Below, piece after piece: positions 3,160-37,203 of a DNA stretch of 64,000 nucleotides. The notes under the pieces were generated by a model. It searched no databases. It saw only the letters and a program-made list of their open reading frames with translations, and was not told the origin of the DNA. The stretch is from positions 77,160-141,159 of the forward strand of contig JADFZK010000001.1 of assembly GCA_015232565.1 (NCBI GenBank), written 5' to 3'. The position numbers and the translations under genes were made by a program. Origin of the DNA: Candidatus Omnitrophota bacterium (GTDB lineage: Bacteria > Omnitrophota > Gorgyraeia > Zapsychrales > Fredricksoniimonadaceae). Positions within the stretch are counted from its first letter, which is position 1. Every line of letters begins with the position of its first letter.

Positions 3160-3980
3160 AAGATCTGGCTTATCAGATCAGGAGAATTATTCTGGAGCAG
3201 TCGTTTCGGGCGGGTGTCGGGCATATAGGTTCGGCCCTGTCTATAGCAGATATCCTGGCTTCTGTTTATGGGGATGTTCTGCGCGCTCGTTCACCTCGGG
3301 ATAAAGAAAGAGATGTGTTTATTCTTTCCAAAGGGCATGCAGCGCTTGCATTGTATGCGGCCTTATATTGCAGGGGGTGGCTTTCGAAGAAGAACCTGGG
3401 TACTTATTGCGGGGATGGCACGTGTTTAGGCGTTCATCCGGAGCACGGGCTACCTGGGATCGAATGCTCTACCGGATCGTTGGGCCAGGGGCTTTCCATG
3501 GGGGTTGGCATGGCACTGGCATTGAAAATGAAACGAAGCAAAGCAAGGGTTTTTATTGTTATAAGTGATGCCGAATATAATGAAGGTTCCCTTTGGGAAG
3601 CCGCCATGTTTGCCGCGCATCATCAATTGTCCAATATTTGCGTTATTGCTGATAATAATGGCCAGCAGGCTTTCGGGTATACTCGAGATGTTTTGAACGT
3701 TGCGCCTGTTGAGAATATATGGAAAGCGTTTGGATGGGGTGTTTATAGTGTCGATGGGCATGACCGCTTAGCTATTACGAGGACGATTAGAAAATCATTG
3801 AAGGTAAAGAACAGTCCGCATGTTATCATCGCTAATACCCAGCTGGGGTATGGTGTTTCTTATATGCAACGGCAAATAAAATGGCATTATTGGCCGATGA
3901 GTGACAAAGAGTACGGGCTGGCCTTGGAGGATATTAAGAAAGTCGGACTGAAGAAGTCACATGGAATAGGACGTGCCTGA
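3156..3980 (+). CDS. Transketolase, N-terminal (TPP-binding) subunit of a split transketolase.
   Basis: It has the motifs [29 protein letters not shown] and [15 protein letters not shown], the transketolase PP-domain signatures. It overlaps rmlA by 4 bp. Confidence 0.8.
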
Positions 3981-4908
3981 TATGCGAGACTCGTTTATCA
4001 AGACATTGATTGATTTGGCGCATAAGGACAAGAGGATCGTGCTTTTGACGGCAGATCTTGGGTATACTGTGCTCGAGTCTTTTCGGGATGTTTTCCCCGG
4101 CCGGTTTTTTAATGTGGGGGTGGCCGAGCAGAATATGGTCGGGGTGGCTACCGGGATGGCAATGCAGGGATTGATCCCGTTTGTTTATTCTATCGGTAAT
4201 TTTGCTGCTTTTCGTCCTTTTGAGTTTATTCGTAACGGCCCCGCAGGGCATGGCCTGCCTGTGCGTATTATAGGGGTTGGTGCCGGAGTAGATTATGGCA
4301 CAGCGGGGAAGAGTCACTGGACTTTGGAAGACGTGGGTGTATTGCGGAATTTGCTCGGGTTGCATATTGTTGTTCCGGCCGATCTTTTTCAGGCTCAATC
4401 TGCCTTGAAAAAAACGTGGGATCTTCCTGGGCCGGTCTATTACAGGATAGGGAAAGGCGATAAATCGGCATTGATTCCCGAAGGTTCTTTTGATCTTGGG
4501 AGAATTAATGTGCTTGCCAGAGGAGAAGATGTTCTTTTTGTTTCGATGGGAAGCGCGGTTAAGGAAGTGGTTAATGCGGTAGAGCTTCTTAGGAAAGACG
4601 GCATTTCATGTGGTGTTGCTGCAGTATCGAGTTTTAATCCTTTCCCGAATGCTGATCTGGTGCGCGTGATGGGGAAGGTTCGTTGGGTGGTTACGGTGGA
4701 GGATCATGTGGTTAATACCGGGTTGGGGGGAGCTGTTGCGCAGGCCATGGTATGTGGCTTAAGCAAAGCCCGCTTGCTATCGCTTGGGGTTACTTCGGCT
4801 GATCTTCCTAAGTCCGGGAGCAAAAAGTATCTTTATGAGCAAATGGGGTTGTCTTCCAACAAGATAGCATCGGCGGTCCGTCAGATTTTGAACAGGGAGC
4901 GTGGTTGA
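3973..4908 (+). CDS. Transketolase, C-terminal (Pyr plus C-domain) subunit.
   Basis: It has FFNVGVAEQNMVGVATGMAMQGLIPFVYSIGNFAAF, the transketolase pyrimidine-binding domain. It overlaps the N-subunit gene by 8 bp. Confidence 0.8.
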   Translation: MPDMRDSFIKTLIDLAHKDKRIVLLTADLGYTVLESFRDVFPGRFFNVGVAEQNMVGVATGMAMQGLIPFVYSIGNFAAFRPFEFIRNGPAGHGLPVRIIGVGAGVDYGTAGKSHWTLEDVGVLRNLLGLHIVVPADLFQAQSALKKTWDLPGPVYYRIGKGDKSALIPEGSFDLGRINVLARGEDVLFVSMGSAVKEVVNAVELLRKDGISCGVAAVSSFNPFPNADLVRVMGKVRWVVTVEDHVVNTGLGGAVAQAMVCGLSKARLLSLGVTSADLPKSGSKKYLYEQMGLSSNKIASAVRQILNRERG

Positions 4909-6350
4909 TGGGCCTAAAGGTTCTTTTTGTAATTGAAAAGATAGGTTTGCTGGATGTTATGTCCATTCCGGTCTTGGCGGCGGCAGTTAAACAGCATGGC
5001 CATCAGGTGCGATTGGCGGTTTATAATCAGGGTAAGATGGCGACTCGAGAGTTGTTGAGAACTTTTAAGCCGGATCTTGTCGCGTATTCTTTGACTTCAG
5101 AGGATTCGGGGCGGTATGTGGCGATCAATAGGGAGTTGAAAAAAGAAGAGAAATTCTTCGCAGTTTTCGGGGGGGCTCATCCGACGTTCTTCCCGGAATT
5201 TATACACGAAGACGGAGTTGACGCTATCTGCCTTGGAGAGGGCGATATTGTTTTTCCTGCATTGTTGGAGCGTTTTGGCTCCGAATCAATGTATGAGGTT
5301 GCTAATTTCCATTTCAAGAAGTCAGACGGGACGATACGGAAGAATCCATTATCCAATCTGGTGTCGGATCTCGACGTTTTGCCATTCCCGGACCGGGACA
5401 TTATTTTTCAGCAAAACACCTTTCTGGCGCAGAATCCGGTCAAGGCGTTTTTTGCCGGCCGAGGCTGTCCTTTTCAATGCACGTATTGTTTCAATCATTC
5501 TTATAACGAATTGTATCGCGGCAAGGGCCGGGTTATCAGGAATAAGAGTGTCGGGTACCTTATCAAAGAAATTAAAAGCGTTGCGGAGAGATACCCGGTA
5601 TCTTTTGTTAAATTCCATGACGATGTCTTTGGGTTTAATAAAGATTGGCTGGCTGAATTCACTGCGAGATATCCTCGGGAAATAGCCAAGCCTTTTCTCA
5701 GTTATGTGAATCCTTCTATGGTGACAGATGCGTATTGTCGGTCGTTAAAGGAGGCTGGATGTTTTTCTGTTTGCATGGCGTTTGAAAGCGGGAGCCGGCG
5801 TATCCGCGAAGAAATCCTTCATCGCCGGATGTCGGATCAGCAGATTATTGATGCTGCGGCTTTATGCAAAAGGCACGGCCTGCGGATATACACATTGAAC
5901 ATGATCGGGATTCCGGATGAAAGTGAAGCGGAGATTTGGGAAACGGTTGAGTTGAATCAGAAAGTGGATTCGGATTATGCTGATGCTTCGATCTTTCAAG
6001 CGTATCCTGGAACGTGGATCTCTACTTATTGTCGCGATAAGGGATTGTTGTCGGAGGATAAGGGAGGGTTTAACAGTCAGTTTTCGGGGTCGTCATTAAA
6101 CTTCTCGCAAGAATACAAGGTTAAACTTGAGATCATTCACCGTCTTTTTCCAATGTTGGTTGATTTACCCGGATTAGAAAAGGTTTATCCTTGGCTTGGC
6201 ACAAGTCGTTTTGTGAGGGGTCTTTTTCATTATTTGTACCGTTTTTATTACGGAGTATTCTTGCATCAGCGAATCTACGCGAATTCTATTCCGTTACGGC
6301 TGCAGCTTAAAGCTTTCATGACTCTTTTGTTTTCGAAGGACAGGGCTTAG
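4908..6350 (+). CDS. Cobalamin (B12)-binding radical SAM enzyme (class B).
   Basis: An N-terminal Rossmann-like B12-binding region (LKVLFVIEKIG ... HGHQVRLAVYN) is followed by the CxxxCxxC cluster motif FFAGRGCPFQCTYCFN. The ATG at 4908 overlaps the transketolase stop. Confidence 0.75.
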   Translation: MGLKVLFVIEKIGLLDVMSIPVLAAAVKQHGHQVRLAVYNQGKMATRELLRTFKPDLVAYSLTSEDSGRYVAINRELKKEEKFFAVFGGAHPTFFPEFIHEDGVDAICLGEGDIVFPALLERFGSESMYEVANFHFKKSDGTIRKNPLSNLVSDLDVLPFPDRDIIFQQNTFLAQNPVKAFFAGRGCPFQCTYCFNHSYNELYRGKGRVIRNKSVGYLIKEIKSVAERYPVSFVKFHDDVFGFNKDWLAEFTARYPREIAKPFLSYVNPSMVTDAYCRSLKEAGCFSVCMAFESGSRRIREEILHRRMSDQQIIDAAALCKRHGLRIYTLNMIGIPDESEAEIWETVELNQKVDSDYADASIFQAYPGTWISTYCRDKGLLSEDKGGFNSQFSGSSLNFSQEYKVKLEIIHRLFPMLVDLPGLEKVYPWLGTSRFVRGLFHYLYRFYYGVFLHQRIYANSIPLRLQLKAFMTLLFSKDRA

Positions 6351-6411
6351 GGATGATCCTGTGGATGGTAAATGGGGATTTAGTGGGACAAAAGAAGGGG
6401 ATATATTTAAT

Positions 6412-7104
6412 ATGCTGATTTCGATTGTTCTGCCGGTCTACAATCAGGCGGATCATATTCAACAAGTGATTGAGGAATATATGTTCTCTCTTAGGAATCT
6501 TACAGTTCCCTATGAGGCGATCTTGGTGGTCAATGGTTCGAAGGACCGGTCAATGGAGGTTTGTCTTGAATTGGCAGAGAAGTATCCTGTTGTCCGCGTT
6601 GTTGAGTCGCCTAAAGCCGGCTGGGGGGCGGCGGTGAGGTTTGGCATTGCCCAGGCAAAAGGGGAGCAGATCTGTTATACGAATACGGCGCGTACTCGAG
6701 GAAAGGATCTTTTGTTGTTTTTGTTGTATGGCATGGCGCATCAGGATACGGTAATTAAAGCGAACCGCAGAATTCGTGATGGGATAAGGCGGCGTATTGG
6801 GTCGCTGTTTTATAATCTTGAGGGACGGATGCTTTTTGATCTGTATAATTGGGATATTAATGGTACTCCCAAGGTTTTTCAGCGTCGTTGGACAGCGTTG
6901 CTGGAGATGAAGTCGGAAGATGATCTTATTGATTTGGAATTTTGCGTTTGCTGCAGGGAGAATGATCTGATGGTTTTGGAAGTACCGATCTTTTCAACCA
7001 GCCGCAAGAGCGGGCGGTCAACGACAGGTTTATTTTCAGCTTTAAAGTTGTATTGGGGCGCTTACAAACTATGGAAGTCGCGGTATGGTAAAAGGGATGT
7101 GTGA
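6412..7104 (+). CDS. Glycosyltransferase family 2.
   Basis: It has MLISIVLPVYNQADHIQQVIEEY, a GT2 N-terminus. An AAGGGGAT ribosome-binding site lies about 10 nt upstream of the ATG at 6412. Confidence 0.65.
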   Translation: MLISIVLPVYNQADHIQQVIEEYMFSLRNLTVPYEAILVVNGSKDRSMEVCLELAEKYPVVRVVESPKAGWGAAVRFGIAQAKGEQICYTNTARTRGKDLLLFLLYGMAHQDTVIKANRRIRDGIRRRIGSLFYNLEGRMLFDLYNWDINGTPKVFQRRWTALLEMKSEDDLIDLEFCVCCRENDLMVLEVPIFSTSRKSGRSTTGLFSALKLYWGAYKLWKSRYGKRDV

Positions 7105-8291
7105 TGATAAGTTCGTCAGGAAATGATCAAGTGTGGCGTAATCCGTTGCGAGTGGTGAATCAATTGGCGGATAGCTCTTTGATGGTTACTAAGAATCAGT
7201 TACAGCATAAAGTTGATGATGGATTCTGGGAGGCATTGGCCGCTACCGGGCTTTCCTTACTGGTTAGCCGGGAGTACGAACATTTCCTGTTGTGCCTGGG
7301 GTGCGGGAATAAAGGTCCAGATATTTCTTATATGTGCTTGCCTCATCCTTCGGGGATAGCGGTGGATAAGGAGCGTAGGTGTGTTTATGTGGCGAGTACG
7401 CGCAATCCGAATTTGGTTTATGAACTTGCGGCTTCAGCGGGCCTCCAGTCTCGGGCCGACCTCGGCCGTTTTGGGAAGAGGGCCGTTGAATTGGAAGGGT
7501 GCCTTATTCCTTGGCGGATATTTGTATATCCTGGAAGCTTGTATATTCATGATTTGGCATTGATTAAAGGGCGCTTGTTTGCGAACGCGGTGGCGCATAA
7601 TGCCGTGGTTCGTCTTGATGAGTCGGGGGGCGTGGAATATGCGTGGTGGCCGCGCTCGATGCAGCAAGGGAAGGGGCCTTGTACGGACCAGAACTTCCTG
7701 CAACTAAATTCTATTGCTGCGGGGCGGGATCTGGAGAGCTCGTTTTTTTCTGCTTCTTGTTCCGAGAAGGCAAAGTATCGTCCAGGTCATCGGTATTTTC
7801 GGGTCGATGGCGAGGGGGTTATATTCTCAGGAAGATCGGGAGATCCGGTATGCCGGGGATTGACTCGCCCGCATTCGGCTAGAATTCATCAGGGAAAGGT
7901 CTGGGTTGATAATAGTGGCTATGGACAGGTTGGTTTTGTTGATAAGGGAAGACTGAATGTGGTTGCCGCTCTGCCTGGATGGACTCGGGGATTGTTTTTT
8001 TGTGGGAATACGCTTTTTGTTGGTGTTTCACGTGTGTTGCCAAAATTCAGGCAGTACGCTCCGGGTTTGGATGTAAAAAAGAGCTTTTGCGGTATTTATG
8101 CTATTGATATTAATTCTGGTAAAACGATCGGCCGGCTTATTTGGCAAGAAGGGGATCAGATATTCGCGGTTGAAGGTTTGCCGCGGGAAATGGGGCGGGG
8201 GTTAATGTGTCCGGCCGGCCGGCCTTTGATGAACGAAGACGGCATAGGGAAGGCTTTTTACGGGTTCAATAAAACAACATGGAGAGGGTAG
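7101..8291 (+). CDS. Conserved hypothetical protein (396 aa, soluble, no motif recognised).
   Basis: It is a long uninterrupted ORF, translationally coupled to its neighbours by ATGA overlaps at both ends. Confidence 0.4.
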   Translation: MMISSSGNDQVWRNPLRVVNQLADSSLMVTKNQLQHKVDDGFWEALAATGLSLLVSREYEHFLLCLGCGNKGPDISYMCLPHPSGIAVDKERRCVYVASTRNPNLVYELAASAGLQSRADLGRFGKRAVELEGCLIPWRIFVYPGSLYIHDLALIKGRLFANAVAHNAVVRLDESGGVEYAWWPRSMQQGKGPCTDQNFLQLNSIAAGRDLESSFFSASCSEKAKYRPGHRYFRVDGEGVIFSGRSGDPVCRGLTRPHSARIHQGKVWVDNSGYGQVGFVDKGRLNVVAALPGWTRGLFFCGNTLFVGVSRVLPKFRQYAPGLDVKKSFCGIYAIDINSGKTIGRLIWQEGDQIFAVEGLPREMGRGLMCPAGRPLMNEDGIGKAFYGFNKTTWRG

Positions 8292-8295
8292 AAAG

Positions 8296-9222
8296 ATGGG
8301 AAAAGAATTCAAGTTGTTAATGCTTGGGGCAATGTATGAAAATGGCGGTAATACCACTCATCGTTTTCTTGATGGACATCCGCAGATGTGTGTTTATCCC
8401 TTTGAGTCCCAATTGGGATCCAGACTGGTGGTTGATCAAATGTCAACGCTATTTCCCCAGAAATATCGCTGGCCGGTTTTTCCTCTTGATGGCACGGCCT
8501 ACGGCGATTACAAGCTTATTATTGATGAGGAAGGGAAGGTGCGTTCGCGTACGCCTCAGGTTAGTAAATTCAGGCATGAGCCGTTTGATATGTCAGATGA
8601 TGAGCGTTGTGAAATCTATCAGAAATATATTGCGCGTCTTGGGCGGTCCCGGGCGCATAATATTGAAGCGTTCTTTAGAAGCACTTTTGATGCCTGGAAA
8701 GATTTCAACCGGACAGGCAGTGAGCAGTTTTATGTTGGATATTCTCCTGTTCTGGTTGTTGATGCGGACAAGATCCTTAATGATGTCCCTGGGGCTCATT
8801 TTCTTCATGTTGTGCGCAATCCATGGGCGGCGTATGCGGACACTAAGAAACGTCCGGTGCCTTTGTCGTTGGAGAATTATATGTTCTGTTGGAATATCAA
8901 CCAGTATTTTGCCTTGTTATGGAAAAAGAAATTCCCGGCCCGTTTTCATTTGATCAGGATCGAGGATGTTTTGGCTGGACCGCAAAAGACTTTGGGTGCG
9001 TTATGTCGCAAGCTTGGGTTAAAGACCAGCGAGACGCTCGGACGAGTAAGCTGGAACGGAAAAGTCTTAGAGGAAGTGTATCCATGGGGGACCATCCGTA
9101 AGCCTACAGCCGAGGCTAATCTCAAGACCGCTCAGGAGCTTTCTAAAGCTGAGATCCGCGAGATTGGCGAAAGGACTTGGCAGTATCTGGATGTGTTTGG
9201 GTATAAGGATTTTCTTAAATGA
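8296..9222 (+). CDS. Sulfotransferase-family protein (putative PAPS-dependent glycan sulfotransferase).
   Basis: FLHVVRNPWAAYADTKK resembles the 3'-phosphate-binding RDPRD...S motif of bacterial sulfotransferases. LLMLGAMYENGGNTT is a degenerate 5'-PSB-like loop. Confidence 0.45.
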   Translation: MGKEFKLLMLGAMYENGGNTTHRFLDGHPQMCVYPFESQLGSRLVVDQMSTLFPQKYRWPVFPLDGTAYGDYKLIIDEEGKVRSRTPQVSKFRHEPFDMSDDERCEIYQKYIARLGRSRAHNIEAFFRSTFDAWKDFNRTGSEQFYVGYSPVLVVDADKILNDVPGAHFLHVVRNPWAAYADTKKRPVPLSLENYMFCWNINQYFALLWKKKFPARFHLIRIEDVLAGPQKTLGALCRKLGLKTSETLGRVSWNGKVLEEVYPWGTIRKPTAEANLKTAQELSKAEIREIGERTWQYLDVFGYKDFLK

Positions 9223-10169
9223 AGCGAGTTAAGAAAGTCTTGATAACGGGGGCAAGCGGGTTTATTGGCGCTAACCTGGCCCGGGCTTTGTTGGCTCAGG
9301 GGCACGAGGTTCATGTCCTGTTGCGTCCCCAAGCGAGTCTGTGGCGCCTGCAGGGGGTGATGGCCTGTTTGCAAAAGCATGCCGTTAACCTGCAGGACGG
9401 TAAAAAGCTAGGACCATTGTTGGGCAAGATCGCGGCTGAATGGGTTTTTCATTTAGCGACATACGGCGCGTATTCCAGTCAGCAAGATATCGATACAGCA
9501 GTGCTAACTAATATAACCGGAATAAATCATTTGTTGCCTGCTGCGCTTGATGCGGGTTGCGAGTCTTTTGTTAATGTTGGTTCATCTTCAGAATACGGGT
9601 TCAAGGATCATGCGCCTAAAGAAAATGAGGTTTTGGAGCCGAACAGTCATTATGCCTTAACCAAAGCGTATGCTACGATGTTTTGTCGGCATACGTCCCT
9701 TACACGGGATCGGCATGTTGTGTCATTAAGGCCGTATTCGGTTTATGGTCCTTATGAAGAGCCGTCGCGGTTCATTCCGCAGTTGGTGTTAAGCGGGTTA
9801 AAAGGCGGGTATCCTCCGTTGGTTGGTCCCGGGGTGGCGCGTGATTATGTGTATGTGGATGATTTTGTGCGGGCTTGTATCTTGGCCGCGCAGAAAACGG
9901 ATCTACCGCGCGGCATGGTTTTTAATGTAGGTACTGGTCGACAGACCACGATTCGGCAGGCCGCGGACATAGCGCGTAAAATCTTCGGTATAGGGCGGTT
10001 GCCTGTTTTCGGCGGAATGGTGAACCGTGAGTGGGATACCAACGTCTGGGTTAGCGATAGTCGCTTGATCCGTCAATGGTTGGGCTGGGAGCCTGTGGTG
10101 GCATTCTCCGACGGTATCTTAAAGACGGTGGAATGGCTCGATCAAAACGGGGGCAAATGGAATGAATAG
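9219..10169 (+). CDS. NAD-dependent epimerase/dehydratase (extended SDR).
   Basis: It has the VLITGASGFIGANLARALLAQGHEV Rossmann motif and a YALTKAYA (YxxxK) catalytic motif. Confidence 0.75.
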   Translation: MKRVKKVLITGASGFIGANLARALLAQGHEVHVLLRPQASLWRLQGVMACLQKHAVNLQDGKKLGPLLGKIAAEWVFHLATYGAYSSQQDIDTAVLTNITGINHLLPAALDAGCESFVNVGSSSEYGFKDHAPKENEVLEPNSHYALTKAYATMFCRHTSLTRDRHVVSLRPYSVYGPYEEPSRFIPQLVLSGLKGGYPPLVGPGVARDYVYVDDFVRACILAAQKTDLPRGMVFNVGTGRQTTIRQAADIARKIFGIGRLPVFGGMVNREWDTNVWVSDSRLIRQWLGWEPVVAFSDGILKTVEWLDQNGGKWNE

Positions 10170-11802
10170 GGATCGTTGGATAGTCTTAACGGGGATTGTA
10201 GTTCTGCTGTCTTTTGCGATTGCCTGGGCTTGCCTGGCCGGGAGATTGACTCTTTGGTCCGATGAGCTTCCGCCTGTTCAAGCGGCTAAAGGTCTTTGGT
10301 TGACGGGCAAGCCTTTTTTGTATGATTTGGATATGGGTACGATAGGGGATAAACCCTATACACATGGGTACCCGATGTCCTTTCTGGGACAGTTTGTCTA
10401 CCGGGCGCTGGGTCACCCAAGTCTTTTTTGGTTTCGGGTTATTCCACTTTCTTTCGGGCTTGTGACCATTGTTTTCTTTTTGTTGTTCTTGAGATTCAGC
10501 GGCCTGGTGAACAGAGTGAAATTGTGGTTGTTGATTGCTTTGTTCTTCTCTTGCGCTATCGTTTTTGATAATTTGCTGTTTTACCGTTATTACACCCTGA
10601 TAGGGTTGTGCGCTTTGCTCAATCTGGTGGCTTTTTGGTATGGAGCGGCGGCGATCAAGGCTAGGTGTTGGTTGAAGGCGTTAATGTGGGCCCTTTTATT
10701 TATTGCCGCTTTTATTTATCCATTGGCCGGTCATTTGCAGATTGTCCATTGCGTGATTATTCCTGTGGCTGGGATTATATTGGCGTTCGGGTCCTCCGGC
10801 AGGTTGCGGGAATGGATCGTCTGTAGGCGAAAGATTCTGGTGTTTTTGGCGGCAGGCGCCGTCATTTTGTGGCCGCTCATTGTTTACGTGTGTGATCTTG
10901 GGCTTGCGCGTGTTGATGTCGGCGGAGGGGCGGTCTCCAGGACCTACATGACTATTTGGGATAATCTGTTCGGACTCGCACGGTTCGGTCTGGCCTTGAA
11001 TATTGTGATCCTGGCGGCAGTCTGGTGGGTTCGTGACAGGCAGGACAAGGCCCTGAATTTGGAAACGTTTTTGTGTTTGACCGGTGTTATTTCGGGATTA
11101 TTGATTGGATTCTGTAATCCGCATCATATGATCTTTCTGGCAAGATACTATTATGTTTCTGCCATGCTGGCTGTCCTTGGGGCTCCTGCGATACTGTTGG
11201 AAATGTGTCGTAATGGCCGCAAATTGGGCTGGTTGCTGGGGATGTTTCTTGTTATAAATTTTGCGTTAATTGCGGTGACAATGACACTGGAGCGTGACAA
11301 TATTGATCGTGCGGTCTCTTGGGTTGAGCAGAATCTGAGGCCAGATGATACGCTTTTATGCGGCCTGATCGAGTTTGAAGTTCATGGCGGGACAAACTTG
11401 GTTGGGCGTGCCCACCGTGTTGAGGCGTCCGAAGACATCCGGTCGGTGTCTCGTTTGCGGGCATTCCTTGAAGGGCAACCGTCGACCAGGGTTCTTTTGA
11501 TTTATGTTGACGCGTATCATCCTCGGGACACGCTTTATCATTGGACAACAGGTGAAAGTCGAGATCCGGTTTCTTCATTGGATGTATTTATGAGGATCAA
11601 GGCGGTTGGGAAGGATGCAGCTTATGGTCTTCGTAATTGTGGCGTGAGGGAATTTGACAGGCTGGCGCTGATTGATCAATTGCGCACGTTGGAGAAAACT
11701 GGGTTTGAGGCCCATTTTAAGGGCCTGGAAAAGCGTTGGGCCAAAAGGATATTTCAACATCTAAAGTTGTGGATCCAGGGGCGCTTCAACGGAGCACAAT
11801 GA
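10162..11802 (+). CDS. Multi-pass membrane GT-C-type glycosyltransferase (ArnT/PMT, GT39/GT83-like).
   Basis: It has more than 10 predicted TM helices. The first extracytoplasmic loop carries the acidic motif RLTLWSDELPPVQAAKGLWLTGKPF typical of the ArnT/PMT family. It has a large soluble C-terminal domain. Confidence 0.55.
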   Translation: MNRDRWIVLTGIVVLLSFAIAWACLAGRLTLWSDELPPVQAAKGLWLTGKPFLYDLDMGTIGDKPYTHGYPMSFLGQFVYRALGHPSLFWFRVIPLSFGLVTIVFFLLFLRFSGLVNRVKLWLLIALFFSCAIVFDNLLFYRYYTLIGLCALLNLVAFWYGAAAIKARCWLKALMWALLFIAAFIYPLAGHLQIVHCVIIPVAGIILAFGSSGRLREWIVCRRKILVFLAAGAVILWPLIVYVCDLGLARVDVGGGAVSRTYMTIWDNLFGLARFGLALNIVILAAVWWVRDRQDKALNLETFLCLTGVISGLLIGFCNPHHMIFLARYYYVSAMLAVLGAPAILLEMCRNGRKLGWLLGMFLVINFALIAVTMTLERDNIDRAVSWVEQNLRPDDTLLCGLIEFEVHGGTNLVGRAHRVEASEDIRSVSRLRAFLEGQPSTRVLLIYVDAYHPRDTLYHWTTGESRDPVSSLDVFMRIKAVGKDAAYGLRNCGVREFDRLALIDQLRTLEKTGFEAHFKGLEKRWAKRIFQHLKLWIQGRFNGAQ

Positions 11803-13336: not shown

Positions 13337-15172
13337 ATGTTGAAACAGTGGTCAAGTTATTTCTGCCTTGCCATGATCGGGGGCGCTTGTGTTCTTTATG
13401 CGCTGTTTGGTTCGTCCTTTGCTGAGATGCATACTCAGTTCGCTTTTCTGGACTTTCCCGTCTTTATCGGGGAATGGTTGATGATCGTTTGTTGGTGCGT
13501 GCTCATCGGTCAGATTCTTATGGAGCCTGTCCGTTGGAGTAGTTGGCGCATATTGATTTTATGCTATCTTTTTTGGGTGATGGTTAAGATGGCTGAGGGC
13601 TATATTCAGTACGGTCCTTATGCTTTGCGAAATGCGGCGTTGTTTTACTATCCTGTTCTTTCAATTATGGTGGTTCATTTTCTGCGTAGAGTCAGGTTTG
13701 GAGATGGTTTGCGAGTTGTGTTTCTTGTAACTTTATTGTACATGATTTCTTGTCTTCCTGTTCAGGCAAGTGCCCAATATGCCTGTTTGATGGGGGGCTT
13801 CTTTGTGGCGGCCGCGTTGTCCCGTTGCTGGCTTCGCAATATTTTTTTCATTCTTCTTATCTTTCTCTTTTTTATGCGTATCGTTTTGTTGAGTACCGGA
13901 CGCGGCTGTTTTACAGGCGCTTTAGTTGGTGTGTTATTTCTAGCGTGGTATAGCGTTCAGGTTTTGCGGCTTTCTGTCTGGAAACAGCTGTGCGGGATAG
14001 TGGTTTTAAGTGTATTTCTGGGTATAAGCTTATGGATGTGGGGAGACAGGAACGCGTTGCTTTCTTTGATCACGCCATGGAGAATTACCGAGAATTATCA
14101 TCTTTATGTAAGTCAAATTGAAAAGAAACGAATGGGTTTTGTTCCGCGGCAGTTAAAGGCAAAGACATACCATGAGAATCTGTCCAGGGTTGATCTCGCT
14201 AAGATTGATTCAGTCAAGACATTGTCTCAGACGCCGGTTATTGTGCATGATGTAATTACCCCTCAAGCTGTTGATCCAGAGCTGGCAGTGAAAGGGCCGG
14301 TTGCTGGGCAGTCTTCGTCAGCGGTTGCGGTTGTTGCGCCTGAAGTTATTGCCAGTCAAGCTGTCAATCAAAAGTCGGCAGTGAAGGGTCAGGTCGCTGG
14401 GAAGTCTTCATTAGCGGTTGCGGTTGTTGCGCCTGAAGTTATGGCCAGTCAAGCCGTCAATCAAAAGTCGGCAGTGAAGGGTCAGGTCGCTGGGAAGTCT
14501 TCATTAGCGGTTGCGGTTGTTGCGCCTGAAGTTATGGCCAGTCAAGCCGTCAAACAAAAACCGTCAGTTAAGTCGCGGGGTGTTGTTCGGCCTTCATCAT
14601 CGGTAATTGCTCCTGCAGTTATGGCTAAGCAGGTAGTTAATACTGAGTTCTCTGTTGACAATGAGATGTCGGGACAATTCGCACAGAGTGCAATTAATAA
14701 TTTTCGAGATCTGGACGCTGCTTATGGTAATGGCGTCTTTCGGCTCCTCATTTGGAAGGATATGCTTCATGAGCTTTTGAAGTATCGGCCTTTGTTTGGG
14801 TTTAGTTTTGGTTGGCCGCAACGATCACCGTCGCTTGAGATTTTGCGCATGGGAGAGGTCGATTGGTTACGGGACGGCTGGATTACGCCGCATAATGTTT
14901 CTTTACATTTGATCTATCGTGGCGGTATTGTTGGTCTGGCAATGATCGCTATGGTTTTGTTCTTTATTGCCCGTATGACGCATGATTTTATACGGGCACG
15001 TTCCTGGCGGGGCGGGGTGCTGGTGAGCGCTTTAATCTCTTGGATTATCATTGCGCAGTTCGGGGTGATCCTCGAATTACCATATAATGCGATTCCGTTT
15101 TGGACTTTATTTGGCGTTGTTGTGGCTTATCGTAATCGGTTGTTGGAAGGGGCTTTGGGTGAGGAAGGATGA
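13337..15172 (+). CDS. O-antigen ligase/polymerase-like (Wzy_C) polytopic membrane protein carrying an internal Ala/Val-rich tandem-repeat loop.
   Basis: It has multiple N-terminal TM helices. The C-terminal PHNVSLHLIYRGGIVGLAMIAM matches the Wzy_C HN..L...E.G..G signature. A 31-aa repeat (ASQAVNQKSAVKGQVAGKSSLAVAVVAPEVM) occurs about three times in the middle. Confidence 0.6.
   Translation: MLKQWSSYFCLAMIGGACVLYALFGSSFAEMHTQFAFLDFPVFIGEWLMIVCWCVLIGQILMEPVRWSSWRILILCYLFWVMVKMAEGYIQYGPYALRNAALFYYPVLSIMVVHFLRRVRFGDGLRVVFLVTLLYMISCLPVQASAQYACLMGGFFVAAALSRCWLRNIFFILLIFLFFMRIVLLSTGRGCFTGALVGVLFLAWYSVQVLRLSVWKQLCGIVVLSVFLGISLWMWGDRNALLSLITPWRITENYHLYVSQIEKKRMGFVPRQLKAKTYHENLSRVDLAKIDSVKTLSQTPVIVHDVITPQAVDPELAVKGPVAGQSSSAVAVVAPEVIASQAVNQKSAVKGQVAGKSSLAVAVVAPEVMASQAVNQKSAVKGQVAGKSSLAVAVVAPEVMASQAVKQKPSVKSRGVVRPSSSVIAPAVMAKQVVNTEFSVDNEMSGQFAQSAINNFRDLDAAYGNGVFRLLIWKDMLHELLKYRPLFGFSFGWPQRSPSLEILRMGEVDWLRDGWITPHNVSLHLIYRGGIVGLAMIAMVLFFIARMTHDFIRARSWRGGVLVSALISWIIIAQFGVILELPYNAIPFWTLFGVVVAYRNRLLEGALGEEG
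14256..14640. repeat. 93-bp in-frame tandem repeat array of about 3.5 units. The two central units are about 97% identical.
   Basis: Units at 14339-14431 and 14432-14524 differ at only 2-3 nt. Degenerate units flank them on both sides (14256-14338 and 14525-14640). Confidence 0.9.
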
Positions 15173-20048: not shown

Positions 20049-21158
20049 ATGGCTGTTAATATTAGAAAGCTTACAACGTTTGCCCGATTCGCAATAATTA
20101 AGGCGGCCCCTTTTTTGTGGCCTGTTATGGCACTTCGTCCGTATTCTGCGACGATCAATATTACGGATAATTGCTGCCTTAAGTGTGTGATGTGTAATCA
20201 ATGGCAGACGTATCATAAAGATGAGCTGAGCAAGGATGAGTGGATGCGGATTCTGGGTGAGTTGTATGTCTGCGGGGTGCGGGAGATCAATTTGACTGGT
20301 GGTGAACCGTTGTGCCGATCCGATATTTTCGAGATCATTGCCGAGGCCGTTCGATTGGGGATCAAGGTCGGTGTGTCCTCAAATGGTGATATGATCGATG
20401 ATGAGATGGCAGATCAATTGCTCAGGTTAGGGGTTAAGGATATTACTATATCGGTTGATGCGATAGGGCTCGAGTATGACCGTTTACGCGGGGTTAAAGG
20501 GGCGTACCAAAGGGTTTATCGGGCTTTGGAGATACTGTCTGCCTATAACCGGGACCGGAGGATGTCGGTGCTGGTGGCATTTGTTTTGATGAAAGACACG
20601 TTGACTTCCTATAAGGAAGTGGTGAACGCTGTTAGCCCTCTGGGCATTCCTGTTGTTGTTAATTTGTTTGATACGAGTCCGTATTTCTTTCAGATCAAGG
20701 GAGCTAGGGAGAGGTTTTGGGTGACGGAAAAAGAGATGTCGCGGTTGGCGGACTTGCAACAGTTTTTTGTTGAGCAAATCCAGATAGCTTCGGTGTTCAC
20801 CAAGCATCGTTTTGTGGACATTGATTTCTTTAAACGCTATTTTCGGGATCCACTACAGAAGGATCTTCCTTGTTATGTTTCCCAAATTCGTTTGAACATA
20901 GGTCCTAAAGGGCAGATCTTTGGCGGATGTTGGTCTTTGGGTGTTCATGGCGATTTACGCAAGAATCGGCTTCAGGAGATACTCAAGTCCAAGGCTTATC
21001 GTGCGATCCAGCAGAAAATGTTCAATAAGCAGTGCCCGGGGTGTTCGTGTGGCTATATTACAACGTTAAATTATTCTTTAGGTAATTGGGTAAAGGAACT
21101 TGTTTATCGTGCTTTTCCATCGGCACGGAGGGGAATTTATGCTGGTGTCAAAAAATAA
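20049..21158 (+). CDS. Radical SAM enzyme with a Cys-rich C-terminal (SPASM/twitch-like) region.
   Basis: It has NITDNCCLKCVMCNQW, a CxxxCxxC motif with an extra Cys. Additional Cys residues lie near the C-terminus (NKQCPGCSCGY). Confidence 0.6.
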   Translation: MAVNIRKLTTFARFAIIKAAPFLWPVMALRPYSATINITDNCCLKCVMCNQWQTYHKDELSKDEWMRILGELYVCGVREINLTGGEPLCRSDIFEIIAEAVRLGIKVGVSSNGDMIDDEMADQLLRLGVKDITISVDAIGLEYDRLRGVKGAYQRVYRALEILSAYNRDRRMSVLVAFVLMKDTLTSYKEVVNAVSPLGIPVVVNLFDTSPYFFQIKGARERFWVTEKEMSRLADLQQFFVEQIQIASVFTKHRFVDIDFFKRYFRDPLQKDLPCYVSQIRLNIGPKGQIFGGCWSLGVHGDLRKNRLQEILKSKAYRAIQQKMFNKQCPGCSCGYITTLNYSLGNWVKELVYRAFPSARRGIYAGVKK

Positions 21159-21277
21159 ATGCGGAGTTTGGTCTGGCTGGGGAAGTATGTCGGCTGATGG
21201 TCAGCTGAATTCTTTCATCGGTAGCGCGGGCGTTCTGTTGGTGGCCATATCCTTGGGATGGTAGGGTTGTTTTCTAC

Positions 21278-22222
21278 ATGTGGAGAATGATGCGATCACT
21301 TGAAATAAAGCCGCATGGACTTATGTTCCATCATTTTTATAACGAGAAGCATTGCCGGGGGCAGGGGGCTATATCTATTGGCCAGTTTGAGGCTGTCCTG
21401 ACTCATTACGAGAAGCACATCCTTTCGGCTGAGGAGTGGTTTAATAGGGCGGTGAGCAACTCGTTAAAGGATCATGATATTTGCTTGACCTTTGATGATG
21501 CGTTATTGTGCCAGTATGAGGTTGCACTTCCGGTGTTGGAGCGGTATGGTTTGACCGCGTTCTGGTTTGTTTATTCCTCCGTGCTGGACGGAGGTTTGGA
21601 GAAACTAGAGATCTACCGGAAATTCAGGACAGTGTGTTATGCATGTATTGATGACTTTTATTTGGATTTCTTCTCGCGGGTGAAGGCTTCGGCTTATAAT
21701 GACGCAGTGGAGTTGGCGTTAAAAGGATATGCACATGACAATTGGAAGTATTGTCCGTTTTATTCTCCTAATGACACAAAGTTCAGGTATATAAGAGATG
21801 TTGCTTTGGGTGTTGATAAGTACCAGGAACTTATGGACAGGATGATTTGCGAACAAGGGATAGATTTGGCTTCTTTTGCTTCTGATCTGTGGATGACGAA
21901 AGAACATGTTAGGAGTTTGTGTGCACGCGGGCATGTCATAGGGTTACATTCGCATACTCATCCGACTGTTCTGGCTGATCTGCCCGCGACCGAACAGCAA
22001 AAAGAATATGGACAGAATTACCGGTTTCTTAGAGATCTTCTTGGTAAAAGCCCGGAAGTGGTCTCGCATCCTTGTAATTCTTATAATGTGGAGACTTTGA
22101 AGATCCTGGCTGCGCTTGGTATTCGGTTGGGGTTTCGGGCTAACATGGCAGATCATCAATATTCAAGGTTTGAATTCGCGCGGGAAGATCACGCGAATGT
22201 GATCCGGAGGATCGGGCAATGA
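21278..22222 (+). CDS. Polysaccharide deacetylase family (NodB-homology) protein; possible de-N-acetylase or deformylase.
   Basis: It has ICLTFDDALLCQYEVALPVLERYGLTAFWF, the NodB motif 1 (TFDD), followed by His-containing motifs HSHTHP. Confidence 0.7.
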   Translation: MWRMMRSLEIKPHGLMFHHFYNEKHCRGQGAISIGQFEAVLTHYEKHILSAEEWFNRAVSNSLKDHDICLTFDDALLCQYEVALPVLERYGLTAFWFVYSSVLDGGLEKLEIYRKFRTVCYACIDDFYLDFFSRVKASAYNDAVELALKGYAHDNWKYCPFYSPNDTKFRYIRDVALGVDKYQELMDRMICEQGIDLASFASDLWMTKEHVRSLCARGHVIGLHSHTHPTVLADLPATEQQKEYGQNYRFLRDLLGKSPEVVSHPCNSYNVETLKILAALGIRLGFRANMADHQYSRFEFAREDHANVIRRIGQ

Positions 22223-23013
22223 AAGTAACCGTGTTTACTAGTAATCAGCCTAGGCATATCGCGCTCATTCATCGTTTGGCGACGGTTGCCGATGAAGTCT
22301 TTGCAGTTTTGGAATGTAATACTGTTTTTCCGGGACAGGTTCAGGATTTCTTTAAACGAACCAATGTTATGCAGGAATATTTTAGGCATGTGATCGAAGC
22401 GGAGAGGATGGTTTTCGGGTCCCTGGACTTTTTGCCGTCAAATGTAAGGTCTTTATCTTTGAGGTCTGGAGACTTGAGCTTGCTGGACATGAGCGCACTT
22501 GTAGCGGCGTTCCAAAGTGATTATTATATTGTTTTCGGGAGCAGTTATATCAGGAACGAGCTTGCTGATTTTTTGGTAGAGCATCAGGCGATTAATATTC
22601 ATATGGGTGTGTCACCTTATTATCGTGGAAATAGTTGTAATTTCTGGGCGCTTTATGACCGGAAGCCGGATTATGTGGGGGCGACGATCCATTTGCTGTC
22701 CAAGGGGCTGGATTCTGGCGCTATGCTGTTTCATGCTGTTCCCGCGGAGCAGGCAGTGGATCCCTTCGAGTTGGGCATGTTGGCGGTTCGGGCCGCGCAG
22801 AATGGCTTGTTGCAAGCGTTAAAGACGGGAGAGTTACTGAAGATGGTGCCCGTGCTTCAGGACAAGAGTCTCCAGATTAGGTATACTCGTAATAGCGATT
22901 TTAATGACGATGTTGCTTCCGGCTATTTAAGAAGCTTGCCGGGGAAGAATGACATTGGCCGTGCGTTAAGAGACCGGGATGTGGGATTGTTGTTGCGGCC
23001 TTATATTGAATAG
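22219..23013 (+). CDS. Formyltransferase-family protein (N-terminal Fmt/ArnA-N/PurN-like catalytic domain only).
   Basis: NIHMGVSPYYRGNSCNFWALYDRKPDYVGATIHLLSKGLDSGAML aligns closely with the Fmt core HGSLLPRWRGAAPIQRSL ... GVTIMQMDVGLDTGDML. Confidence 0.7.
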   Translation: MKVTVFTSNQPRHIALIHRLATVADEVFAVLECNTVFPGQVQDFFKRTNVMQEYFRHVIEAERMVFGSLDFLPSNVRSLSLRSGDLSLLDMSALVAAFQSDYYIVFGSSYIRNELADFLVEHQAINIHMGVSPYYRGNSCNFWALYDRKPDYVGATIHLLSKGLDSGAMLFHAVPAEQAVDPFELGMLAVRAAQNGLLQALKTGELLKMVPVLQDKSLQIRYTRNSDFNDDVASGYLRSLPGKNDIGRALRDRDVGLLLRPYIE

Positions 23014-23055
23014 AGTTCGTTTCTGGATCAGGCGTACAAGATAAGGAGAGGAATA

Positions 23056-25068
23056 ATGAACGTAGCTTTATTGGATCTCAACCATTTTACCCGCGGCGTG
23101 ACGAATAACACGGTGCCTCTTGGTCTGGGTATGATAGCCGCCTTTTTACGCAAACGGATCGGGGGTGCTCTGGACATCAGGATTTTCAAGGATACCAGCA
23201 AGGCCCTGGGTGTGTTTGCATCCTGGACTCCTGACGTGATCGGTCTTGCGCAGTATGTCTGGAACAGTGAACTCAATTTGTCCGTTGCCCGCATTGTTAA
23301 AGACAGGAATCCGCGTTGTTTTGTCGTCGTTGGTGGCCCTAACCTGGATTTGTCTGCGGCCCGGCGGATGCAGTATTTTATTGACCACCCGTTAGTGGAT
23401 GCCGGGATCCTTTATGATGGGGAGATCCCTTTTGCCGGGCTGGTTGGGAGGCTTATGGCCGGGGAGTCGCGGGAAAGCATCTGCCTGACCCCTTCGGCTG
23501 GTATGTACTCGTTTGACAGGAAAGAGAATGCTTTGCGGGAATCAGCCGAACCGCCGCCGCGTCTTTCCAGTCTTGACGAGATAGGGGCGATCTATGCCGA
23601 GGGCGTTTTTGACGAGTTTCTGAATGTTGGCTGTCATCCATTTCTGCAAACACATCGCGGGTGTCCTTTTACGTGTACGTTTTGCCATACTAGCGATTCC
23701 TATTATTCTCGGATGCTTTTTCTTTCCCCTGAGATATTTCGGCGTGAGATGGAGTGCCTGGGTAAACGCTATGCTGGCCGGCATGACGTGACCCTTTTTC
23801 TGGCCAACACGAATATGTCGCTTTTCCCGGAAGATTTTACGATCGCCGGGATCATTCGCGAGACTCAGGAGAAATACGATTGGCCGCGCAACATCAGCGT
23901 TAATTCGGGCAAAGATCCCAAGAAGTTGCTGGCAATGATGGATATACTCCGTTTTCAACCATCGATCGCACTTCAGACTTTGACGCCAGCTGTCCTGAAA
24001 AATATTAAAAGAATTAATATTCCTTTTGATAATTTTGTGTCTTTTCAGCGCGCAGTCCTTAAAGAGACCGGTGCCCCGTCGGTTACCGAATTGATCTTGT
24101 GTCTTCCAGGAGAGACCCGGGCCAGCTTTCTTGAAACGTTGTGCAGGGTGCTTAATTCCGGGGTTCAGTCGGTAGTGATCTATACGCTCATGTCGCTTAA
24201 AGGGACGGAACTGGTTTCGGAAGAGAGCATCCGTAAATATCGTTTCGATATTCGCCACAGGGTTGTTCCCCGGCAGTTTAGCGTTGTGTCTGGCCGGAAA
24301 GTTCTTGACACCGAGGCGGTTGTCGTAGCGACGGATACGATGTCCTTCGGAGATTATTTGGAATTACGGGGATTGTGTTTTACTGTGACCACGTTTTATA
24401 GTTCCCTTGAGTTGATGCCTATCAAGAAATTGCTCTTGGAAAGCGGTGTGGATGTTTCAGCTTGGGTGCTGGGCATTCACGCGCGATGTGCTCAGTTTCC
24501 TGATCTTGCGTATTATCATGATGAATTTATCAAGGAGACCCAGGCTGAACTATTTTTAACCCGGGAAGCGCTGACGGACTTTTTTGAGGATCCCCGGCAT
24601 TGGGAGGATCTGTGCCAGGGGCTTTACGGGGATAACCTTACGCGTAAGTATAAACAGTTGGTATTGACGAAATGTTATAAGACGCTGCTGGAAGTTGCTT
24701 TGTCCGAGGCAAGGGATTTGCTAGCCGCGAAGCTCCTGCCTGATATGCTCGAAGATCTTTTGCGTGATCTTAGGTCTTATTTGTCGGTCAGGGACGTACG
24801 GGACATTTTTGAAGGGACTTTGTCCCTTGAAGACAGGGTTGTAACTGTTGCGTATAATATTCCGTTATGGATGATGAACTCCAATCCCGCTCTTGGAATG
24901 AACGATTTTCGGGGCAGGACTTCATACCGGGTGATTTATCCTGTTGATATAAAGGAGAAAGCCCAGGAATTCGCGAGGTCGAATAAAGACAAGGAGTTGT
25001 CGTTGCAGATCATGTATCGCGATGGACTTATCAGTGATTTCTGGCCAAGATGGATTGAGAGCAAATGA
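23056..25068 (+). CDS. Large cobalamin (B12)-binding radical SAM enzyme (670 aa).
   Basis: An N-terminal B12-binding-like domain (VIGLAQYVWNSELN ... FVVVGGPNLD) is followed by HRGCPFTCTFCHTS (CxxxCxxC) and a long C-terminal extension. Confidence 0.7.
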   Translation: MNVALLDLNHFTRGVTNNTVPLGLGMIAAFLRKRIGGALDIRIFKDTSKALGVFASWTPDVIGLAQYVWNSELNLSVARIVKDRNPRCFVVVGGPNLDLSAARRMQYFIDHPLVDAGILYDGEIPFAGLVGRLMAGESRESICLTPSAGMYSFDRKENALRESAEPPPRLSSLDEIGAIYAEGVFDEFLNVGCHPFLQTHRGCPFTCTFCHTSDSYYSRMLFLSPEIFRREMECLGKRYAGRHDVTLFLANTNMSLFPEDFTIAGIIRETQEKYDWPRNISVNSGKDPKKLLAMMDILRFQPSIALQTLTPAVLKNIKRINIPFDNFVSFQRAVLKETGAPSVTELILCLPGETRASFLETLCRVLNSGVQSVVIYTLMSLKGTELVSEESIRKYRFDIRHRVVPRQFSVVSGRKVLDTEAVVVATDTMSFGDYLELRGLCFTVTTFYSSLELMPIKKLLLESGVDVSAWVLGIHARCAQFPDLAYYHDEFIKETQAELFLTREALTDFFEDPRHWEDLCQGLYGDNLTRKYKQLVLTKCYKTLLEVALSEARDLLAAKLLPDMLEDLLRDLRSYLSVRDVRDIFEGTLSLEDRVVTVAYNIPLWMMNSNPALGMNDFRGRTSYRVIYPVDIKEKAQEFARSNKDKELSLQIMYRDGLISDFWPRWIESK

Positions 25069-35958: not shown

Positions 35959-35959
<1 letters not shown>

Positions 35960-37203
35960 TGATAGCTATCACTTTTCTTGATCGGGCGATCTTTGTTCTA
36001 CTTTGTCTTTTGGTTTTCTTTTTGCCTGCCACCAATGCTTTTGTGGAAGTGGCGTCTGCTTTGGCTATACTGGCTTTCCTCATAAAACAGTTTCTGCTGG
36101 GCCCCGCGGCTTTAAAACGCCTGCCGGGCAAGATGGTGCTTATTCCGGCTTTGTTGTTTTTTGTCTGGTCGGGGCTTTCCATTGTCTGGAGCCAGTTCCC
36201 GTTGTTAAGCCTGAAGGGTTTTCTCGGCAAATCTTTGCAGGCCGCTTTTTTGTTCATTATTAGTTATGAAACTTTGTCTTCCGGCAAGCGCTACTGGATC
36301 CTGATCGCGGTTTTTATGGTCTCGGCGGGCATTGTATCTTTGGATGGCTTATGGCAGGCTTATTCGGGGTTCGACATCTTTGTGCGCGCTCCGTTCTCGG
36401 ACGGGCGGGTAATGGCGTCTTTCCGGCACCCTAATGATTTTGGGGCTTACCTTATCCTGGCGATCCTGCCGGTCATAGTGCTTACCATAACAGCCGGAGT
36501 GCGTTCTTTTACCGATTACAGTCTTAAGAACGCCATGTTGTTCTTTGGCGGTTTTCTCTTTGTGGGCGTAGCTTCAACAGCTTTGGGATTAACTTATTCC
36601 CGGGGTGCCTGGTTCGGCATGGTAGTGGCGGCGATCATTTTGATCGCCCATAACCGCCGTTTGTGGCCGGCGGTGCTGGCTTTCACGTCTTTGTTCATCC
36701 TTATTTTTCAGCCTTTATTGCTTAAGATCCGGGATGTTTCTTTTGTGGCGGATACGGTCGGCGGGCAGTCAAGTTTCGGGGTTTTTAACGGTAATGGTCG
36801 GCTGGTTTTCTGGCGCGACGCACTGAAGGTCATCGCCGATAACCCCATCTTCGGCACCGGGTTGAATTCCTACACTATGGTAATTAAGAAGTATGTGCCT
36901 ATGTGGGCTATTTATCCGCATAACTGCTATTTGCAAATGGGCGCCGAGTTGGGGCTGGTGGGGTTGGCTTTGTTCCTTTGGTTCATGATTGCGCTAATGA
37001 TCAAGATGTCGTCGGGGATCGGGCGTTTGCCCAAAGAGCCCGAGCGCTGGTTATTGACGGCTTTCTTTGCCGGCTGGTGCGGTTTTCTGGTCCATAGCGG
37101 GCTGGATACCTCGTTATATTCGTCCCAGTTGACCGCTATTTTCTGGGTCGTTACCGGAGCGATGGCAGCTTTCGGTAAGCAGATATCATGTCGTCAGGTA
37201 TGA
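35959..37203 (+). CDS. O-antigen ligase / Wzy-type polymerase family membrane protein.
   Basis: It has about 11 TM helices. The C-terminal region YPHNCYLQMGAELGLVGLALFLWF matches the Wzy_C motif. Confidence 0.65.

Follow-up and report, generated by a model that had tools for sequence, protein, structure and literature searches.

How does an in-frame tandem repeat come to lie, apparently without harm, in the middle of a conserved membrane enzyme of glycan assembly? The question is raised by a stretch of 64,000 nucleotides from a Candidatus Omnitrophota bacterium (contig JADFZK010000001.1, positions 77,160 to 141,159 of the forward strand; hereafter the window), in which an open reading frame (ORF) for a membrane protein contains an array of 93-bp units. 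The first-pass annotation of the window, made from the sequence alone, had singled out this array as a very recent duplication in an O-antigen-ligase-like protein and had proposed that variation in copy number could tune the length of a surface polymer. Our analysis leads to a plainer reading, which we consider probable, that the array encodes part of a weakly constrained, disordered spacer, expanding by slippage or unequal recombination at a permissive site in a periplasmic loop. The position of the array looks like a site where expansion is tolerated, and not like a special device.

Anatomy of the repeat array

The array occupies 14235-14641 within the ORF at 13337-15172 and is built of in-frame units of 93 bp, a multiple of three corresponding to 31 codons, with two central units that are identical at 91 of 93 positions and older, diverged units on either side. 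The presence of a 93-bp tandem repeat, as first reported, was confirmed. Tandem Repeats Finder delimits an array at 14284-14559 (period 93, 3.0 copies, 94% matches, no indels, score 482), the only one in the 64-kb window with a score >55, and a gap-free repeat search finds five in-register copies, here called A to E, which start at 14235, 14328, 14421, 14514 and 14601, the final spacing being 87. Since identity at an offset of 93 averages only 26/93 across the whole window (sd 5.6), the array lies far beyond chance. At this offset the array matches itself almost perfectly from 14320 to 14460, with 2 mismatches in 141 nt and one unbroken exact stretch of 98 nt, and a 33-nt core of the unit occurs at three sites, all in the array and nowhere else in the window, where shuffled sequences lead one to expect 0.

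The units are clearly not of one age. Units B and C are distinguished by two substitutions in 93 bases, a synonymous one and one that exchanges I for M; the resulting identity of 97.8% matches the figure of about 97% given earlier for the central units, and the peptide then quoted occurs exactly twice, starting at residues 339 and 370. The identity falls to 77% between A and B and to about 70% between C and D. About 2.5 near-identical young units are embedded in an older, diverged array, which bears out the claim of a recent central event, be it duplication or homogenisation. It can be hypothesized that the old array diverged first and that about 1.5 further near-identical units arose later by addition or homogenisation, most likely through replication slippage or unequal recombination between units. 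As every unit is a multiple of three bases, such gain or loss would keep the reading frame. Units B and C, which are near-identical, head-to-tail and in frame, have the form of a variable-number coding repeat. When adjacent units were pooled, the Nei-Gojobori method gave proportions of synonymous (pS) and non-synonymous (pN) differences of 0.151 and 0.078, a ratio of 0.52 that rests on small counts (24.5 synonymous and 37.5 non-synonymous differences); for units A and B of the window, pN/pS is 0.83. Constraint on the repeat units thus appears weak.

The host protein and its large loop

The gene product is deposited as a 'hypothetical protein' of a Candidatus Omnitrophica metagenome-assembled genome (MAG), on a contig of 141.6 kb, and scans of the full 611-aa protein against Pfam and NCBIfam gave no match. 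The C-terminal 176 aa alone match Wzy_C (PF04932) at 29.6 bits (E=7e-7, profile positions 63-148 of 149), just below the Pfam gathering score of 31.7 bits. Scanned singly, 7 of 12 family members match Wzy_C at E<=0.01, and the relative P0088 scores 33.2 bits. The fact that members with long loops match only the second half of the profile (positions ~73-149) implies that the Wzy_C domain is split by an insert, and it is because of this split that the full-length protein escapes detection by Pfam. Alignment of the family profile with the canonical Wzy_C protein of the window (35959-37203) by hhalign, at a probability of 84.5%, superposes the motifs GN-x-x-R-L-x-x-W-R-D and P-H-N-x-x-L-...-G-x-V-G-L of both proteins. 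In a Foldseek search, the model of the short-loop homologue P0003 (predicted local distance difference test score, pLDDT, 77; predicted TM-score, pTM, 0.78) had WaaL as its top match (7tpg_B, E=8.3e-3, prob 1.00), with FtsW and RodA next in rank; when PDB sequences were searched with a profile, the only matches were spurious ones of low complexity. We read the protein as a divergent member of the Wzy_C superfamily (O-antigen ligase/polymerase) without assigning it to either role. The earlier label of O-antigen-ligase-like protein therefore stands as to the superfamily, through the sub-threshold Wzy_C match, the hhalign superposition and the weak fold match of P0003, while by sequence the membership is indicated only weakly.

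The nearest well-described system is the O-antigen ligase WaaL (PF04932; CAZy GT121; 7TPG). Both proteins have 12 predicted transmembrane (TM) helices with the two termini in the cytoplasm, and in both a long loop between TM9 and TM10, predicted to be periplasmic in the window protein, bears a conserved His-Asn motif and an amphipathic helix with a conserved Arg. The short-loop homologue has its best, if weak, fold match in WaaL, and in either case the gene stands in a cluster of sugar-nucleotide and glycosyltransferase genes. In the window protein the conserved Arg and His of the large extracytoplasmic loop are present, R469 and W473 being nearly invariant and the P-H519-N motif being kept in all full-length members aligned; their role is taken over from work on WaaL (PMC10920833). 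Unlike WaaL, the family has invariant motifs of its own in the eight or so N-terminal helices (FPVFIGE, ALRNAALFYYP) and a Wzy_C domain split by a disordered insert of 17-516 aa, and what sequence similarity the two share is marginal and does not extend beyond the second half of the Wzy_C profile. Moreover, the 611-aa protein need not be the ligase, because a separate canonical Wzy_C protein is encoded in the same cluster.

An AlphaFold2 (AF2) model of the window protein, built on a 12-sequence alignment (mean pLDDT 62.7, about 75-94 in the TM core), contains 12 TM helices. Lys and Arg residues of the short loops number 12 in 58 aa on the side assigned to the cytoplasm and 2 in 48 aa on the outside, a count which, together with the AF2 helices, points to an N-in/C-in topology and a periplasmic TM9-TM10 loop; the plan of 12 TM helices with a long periplasmic loop at this place is thus present by prediction. 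The repeat, at residues ~301-435, follows two conserved short helices and the anchor F-V-P-x-x-L-K-A-x-x-Y-H, and precedes the conserved helix with R469 and W473 and the PHN motif with H519. This agrees with the earlier placement of the repeat between the TM bundle and the Arg/His segment, outside the cytoplasm, as judged from the AF2 helices and the positive-inside rule. Residues 298-439 are modelled with no secondary structure at a pLDDT of 24-32, and the score is <50 across residues 266-463. The repeat region is made up of V 24%, A 19%, S 13%, Q 8%, K 8% and P 7%, with a net charge of +7, and no 19-residue window in it shows TM-like hydrophobicity (maximum 1.26).

From these data a simple mechanism can be envisioned. 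The 93-bp array would supply about 135 residues of an intrinsically disordered, V/A/S/Q/K-rich spacer to the TM9-TM10 loop of a divergent Wzy_C-superfamily glycosyltransferase, just upstream of the Arg/His segment. The two flanks of the spacer attach to conserved regions that are modelled with confidence, and the insert between them would be free to loop out. Almost any length or sequence of insert would then apparently be tolerated, and the sequence of the spacer itself would be largely unimportant for function.

A comparison with WbdD bears on the proposal that the repeat tunes polymer chain length. In WbdD, a protein of the ABC-transporter pathway, a structured cytoplasmic coiled coil acts as a molecular ruler of O-antigen chain length. 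The two cases have in common the idea that polymer length could be set by how long a spacer is in a protein of glycan assembly. The spacer described here is, in contrast, predicted to be disordered and periplasmic and is anchored at both ends, and its AF2 model has none of the secondary structure of a WbdD-like ruler. We found no link between spacer length and chain length, and the proposal fits poorly with spacers that have no common motif, are predicted to be disordered and appear to be under relaxed constraint.

A hot spot of spacer expansion across the family

An exhaustive profile search over 1.84 billion representatives yielded 1481 proteins at E<=1e-3, and at the stricter limit of E<=1e-30 it retained 498 representative clusters. 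The top 150 matches, of 461 to 994 aa, were matched end to end, and more than 150 clusters (50% identity) at E<=1e-120 speak for strong conservation across much of the phylum; a second, word-indexed protein search with the alignment brought no new members, and it took the exhaustive profile search for the family to come into view. A scan of one genome per species gave 95 relatives, of which 80 were kept, the window genome not being among those 80. Most of these loci carry Candidatus Omnitrophota/Omnitrophica or Ca. Zapsychrus in their titles. About twenty come from third-party bins titled 'uncultured Planctomycetales/Planctomycetia' (e.g. L008-L011, L014, L021), and a few are titled 'Planctomycetales bacterium', 'bacterium' or 'Deltaproteobacteria' (L067). 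The Planctomycetales/Planctomycetia and Deltaproteobacteria titles are probably matters of taxonomic labelling or binning, and the family is otherwise largely confined to Omnitrophota. The Wzy polymerases of O-antigen and capsule share with the family the superfamily, the membrane plan and the location in Wzx/Wzy-type glycan clusters, with a Polysacc_synt flippase nearby in relatives of the window gene. Wzy proteins are usually very diverse even within one species, whereas this family is strongly conserved over a large part of its phylum.

The conservation does not extend to the spacer. Measured between two anchors conserved in the family, it ranges from 21 to 516 aa (median 134) among 151 proteins, the rest of the protein being about 445 aa, and from 17 to 516 aa in the 77 genes of the genome set. 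Even in pairs with 65-91% identity in the core, the spacer lengths mostly differ (e.g. 493 vs 516, and 17 vs 67 vs 76). Tandem repeats above every shuffled control are found in 14 of the 151 spacers at the protein level, with unrelated units of 30-104 aa, and in the loops of 14 of the 77 genes at the DNA level, where 13 are in frame. Long-period arrays (period >=30, score >=130) are concentrated in the loops, whose 28.8 kb of DNA contains 7 of them where the other 946.7 kb of the loci contains 1, an enrichment of about 230-fold. The closest homologue, P0002 (46% identical), has at the same place a different, unrelated array of 129 bp (2.9 copies, 91% matches). Independent and unrelated repeats have thus arisen at one and the same position. 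The earlier description of a 'hypervariable surface-exposed segment' holds family-wide as regards hypervariability, to which the range of spacer lengths, the unrelated repeats and the differences among close relatives all testify; it does not hold as regards surface exposure, since the loop is predicted to face the periplasm from the inner membrane.

If the repeat multiplied a short functional element, namely the hydrophobic V-A-V-V-A-P-E-V strand, that binds a partner or the cell wall and of which extra copies add sites, one would look for that element elsewhere in the family. Similar strings do occur once each in the spacers of the nearest relatives (VAVSVVAPL in P0004, KISVVQPEV in P0006 and VVAVAPEL in P0010), a resemblance that may reflect shared ancestry. 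We rejected V-x-V-V-A-P-E-V as a conserved motif at the functional heart of the repeat, as only 1 of the 151 family spacers, that of the window protein, carries the defined pattern, and no k-mers are common to the spacers beyond what shuffled controls give. AF2 gives neither a strand nor a fold in this region, and we regard such a binding element as very unlikely. The composition of the spacers, which is E/K/S-rich family-wide, differs from the V/A-rich spacer of the window protein.

The only long-period array outside the loops lies in L022 at 2435-2683 (122 bp, 2.0 copies, 96% matches), just upstream of the family gene (match 2735-4357). Separately, the insert of P0007/P0008 (L058; L084 10001-12937) also has helical, charged stretches, and a 7-aa duplication, KEPIKDY, is present in P0008 and not in P0007.

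Copy number, turnover and assembly

A difference of a single unit, real or a product of assembly, appears in one case within the family. P0028 (759 aa) and P0161 (802 aa), which fall in one 90% cluster, are identical apart from a gap of 43 aa, and their respective contigs, L086 and L085, are identical over 8280 nt save for one 129-bp unit in the loop of the family gene. These two contigs come from different ENA assemblies (k141 and k127), have nearly the same coordinates and possibly derive from one sample, and the difference between them is either a real variable-number tandem repeat (VNTR) or an assembly collapse. That the repeat breaks short-read assemblies is illustrated by the MAG UBA10174, where two contigs each hold part of the P0002 orthologue and each stop within its 129-bp array. 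For the window gene itself, a search of ~15 billion proteins gave no relative above 46% identity, and two exact-DNA scans for it in metagenome contigs found none.

These cases bear on two alternatives. According to the first, a real array has been given the wrong size, through an error of assembly (collapse or expansion of a de Bruijn loop) in the copy number of the near-identical central units. The exact repeat of 98 nt and the near-exact one of 141 nt exceed common k-mers, and the broken orthologue and the DNA assembled twice with one unit of difference speak for it as well. On the other side, the two substitutions that separate units B and C help to anchor reads, and the diverged units A, D and E show that the array exists regardless of the number of central copies. 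We regard this alternative as plausible for the central units, though less likely than not.

The second alternative is that the array is an adaptive device of length tuning or contingency, whereby copy number alters the reach or geometry of the loop, and with it glycan chain length, substrate handling or partner binding, the variation being selected within populations. Near-identical units lend themselves to frequent gain and loss, all strong arrays of the family are in frame, one relative has 1.9 vs 2.9 copies in otherwise identical DNA, and the spacer is always present, with a lectin-like domain in two relatives. However, an enzyme that is otherwise conserved would be destroyed by arrays out of frame, so that in-frame periods are to be expected in any case, and the pair with 1.9 and 2.9 copies may reflect an assembly difference within the same sample. 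The spacers have no motif in common and differ widely in composition, AF2 predicts no structure for the repeat, and neither the protein search nor the metagenome scans offered material for a population comparison of the window gene. We consider adaptive tuning unlikely.

The array can also be set beside the coding VNTRs of bacterial envelope and surface proteins, with which it shares in-frame, near-identical neighbouring units and a low-complexity or disordered product, as well as an apparent copy-number difference between near-identical sequences in one family member. It differs from them in that its host is not a secreted or wall-anchored adhesin; here the repeat lies in a loop of a polytopic inner-membrane enzyme.

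Several points weigh against a spacer that is simply tolerated, which we nevertheless favour. The spacer is never lost, its minimum being 17-21 aa and its median 89-134 aa, and some spacer may be needed. In P0007/P0008 a folded, concanavalin-like lectin domain, Laminin_G_3, lies within the ~500-aa loop insert, and the site is thus able to host functional modules; a Pfam scan of ten of the longest proteins (nine long-spacer members and the fusion P0013) gave no family except Wzy_C. The pooled pN/pS is below 1, which makes some constraint possible on counts that are small. Since the exact repeat exceeds common assembly k-mers, the number of near-identical units in a short-read MAG could be wrong. 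The topology and the disorder of the loop are themselves predictions, the AF2 model of the window protein had no Foldseek match in the PDB, and the fold match between P0003 and WaaL is weak (TM-score 0.35/0.41).

Coding tandem repeats and disordered linkers are ordinary, and the Wzy_C superfamily is well known. Our literature search found no description of repeats in Wzy_C/WaaL loops, nor of this Omnitrophota family, and a family, largely of Omnitrophota, whose Wzy_C domain is split and whose hot spot of repeats is quantified here appears to be undescribed in the searchable literature. While no new mechanism is revealed at present, the 'hypothetical protein' can now be read as a divergent glycan ligase or polymerase of the Wzy_C type whose Pfam domain is hidden by the insert, and the annotation of many Omnitrophota relatives would gain from a model that skips the spacer. 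For the study of how disordered regions and repeats evolve, the family offers a clean, quantified case in which tandem duplication is concentrated in a permissive loop of a polytopic membrane enzyme, the units having arisen independently in different lineages. It also carries a practical warning that array copy numbers in short-read MAGs are unreliable, given the contig breaks and the identical DNA assembled one unit apart.

Coordinates of the repeat units, of the host gene and of other features (window positions unless a contig is named)
Feature	Position	Strand	Description
Membrane protein gene	13337..15172	+	611 aa, 12 TM predicted; MBF0386298.1, HQL20_00415; from ORF list, 100% identical database entry, AF2 and family profile search
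Large TM9-TM10 loop	14042..14920	+	Residues 236-528, 293 residues, predicted periplasmic; from AF2 helices and positive-inside count
Hypervariable spacer	14177..14698	+	Residues 281-454, 174 aa; between two family-conserved anchors, measured on 151 proteins and 77 genes
Repeat unit A	14235..14327	+	Residues 301-331, VIVHDVITPQAVDPELAVKGPVAGQSSSAVA; old, diverged, 77% identical to unit B
Repeat unit B	14328..14420	+	Residues 332-362, VVAPEVIASQAVNQKSAVKGQVAGKSSLAVA; 91/93 identical to unit C
Repeat unit C	14421..14513	+	Residues 363-393; peptide of unit B with I338M
Repeat unit D	14514..14600	+	87 nt, residues 394-422, 29 aa; first 41 nt 98% identical to unit C, remainder diverged
Repeat unit E	14601..14641	+	From residue 423, partial, diverged; 73% identical to the 41-nt core
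Wzy_C-type conserved segment after spacer	14711..14947	+	Residues 459-537; amphipathic helix with R469 and W473, P-H519-N motif, then GG-x-VG; from profile match, hhalign and near-invariant columns
Loop arrays differing by one unit	L085 4327-4705 vs L086 4327-4576		2.9 vs 1.9 copies; ENA assemblies ERZ978390 and ERZ27253378
Broken orthologue, MAG UBA10174	L003 contig end ~6927		Proteins P0158, P0159
Upstream of gene			Glycosyltransferase family 2 (GT2), hexapeptide acyltransferase, 11-TM protein without family
Downstream of gene			RmlB-like, RmlA-like, epimerase, glycosyltransferase family 4 (GT4)
Further downstream			Radical-SAM enzymes, deacetylase, formyltransferase-like, more GT2
Cluster end			WecG, Bac_transf initiating transferase, GDP-mannose dehydratase, canonical Wzy_C protein
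Second, canonical Wzy_C protein	35959..37203	+	414 aa, Pfam Wzy_C 77.3 bits; closes the cluster before pgk and tpi
Beyond cluster			pgk, tpi
Split transketolase	3156-4908	+	
B12-binding radical-SAM enzymes, two	4905-6350 and 23056-25068	+	
DUF4915	7101-8291	+	
Sulfotransferase	8296-9222	+	
Radical-SAM/SPASM enzyme	20049-21158	+	

Genomic context

The gene lies within a glycan cluster of about 36 kb, all on one strand, which the canonical Wzy_C protein closes. Parts of this arrangement recur in relatives: L083 keeps the order family gene, WecG, Bac_transf, canonical Wzy_C and PGK, and in L084 the family gene is followed by RmlB, RmlA, epimerase, GT4 and flippase. These genomes thus encode two Wzy_C-type enzymes in each cluster, possibly one polymerase and one ligase. 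In a natural fusion, P0013 (994 aa, L055 5059-8103), a single ORF joins a canonical Wzy_C domain at residues 192-398 (61.7 bits) to a complete family member at residues 476-989, which hints that the canonical Wzy_C protein and the family protein act together.

A further possibility can be put forth, namely that the spacer, which is predicted to be disordered, evolves fast and is never absent, functions as a tether in two Wzy_C enzymes that form a phylum-specific pair, where gain or loss of repeats would adjust the periplasmic reach of the catalytic or lectin-bearing part of the loop. Were this true, the surface glycan of these ultra-small, possibly host-attached cells would change, and the array in the window would be a live example of its tuning. 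We think a tether of this kind improbable and retain the weakly constrained, permissive loop as the preferred reading.

Around the gene, Rfam, promoter and terminator scans gave nothing above background, and a minus-strand ORF at 14597-14821 was set aside for lack of support. Two genes upstream of the family gene, with the acyltransferase and GT2 genes in between, the window encodes a protein of 546 aa (10162-11802, plus strand) with about 11 hydrophobic segments and no match in Pfam or NCBIfam. Unannotated proteins of 600-700 aa also lie near the family gene in L001, L083 and L084. The tailoring genes of the cluster, at 3156-9222 and 20049-25068 on the plus strand, are unusual and are listed in the table. 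Further along the window, following an SMC-like gene at 53125-56565, an ORF of 2212 aa (56665-63303, plus strand) has HATPase_c (residues 1006-1115) as its sole Pfam match.

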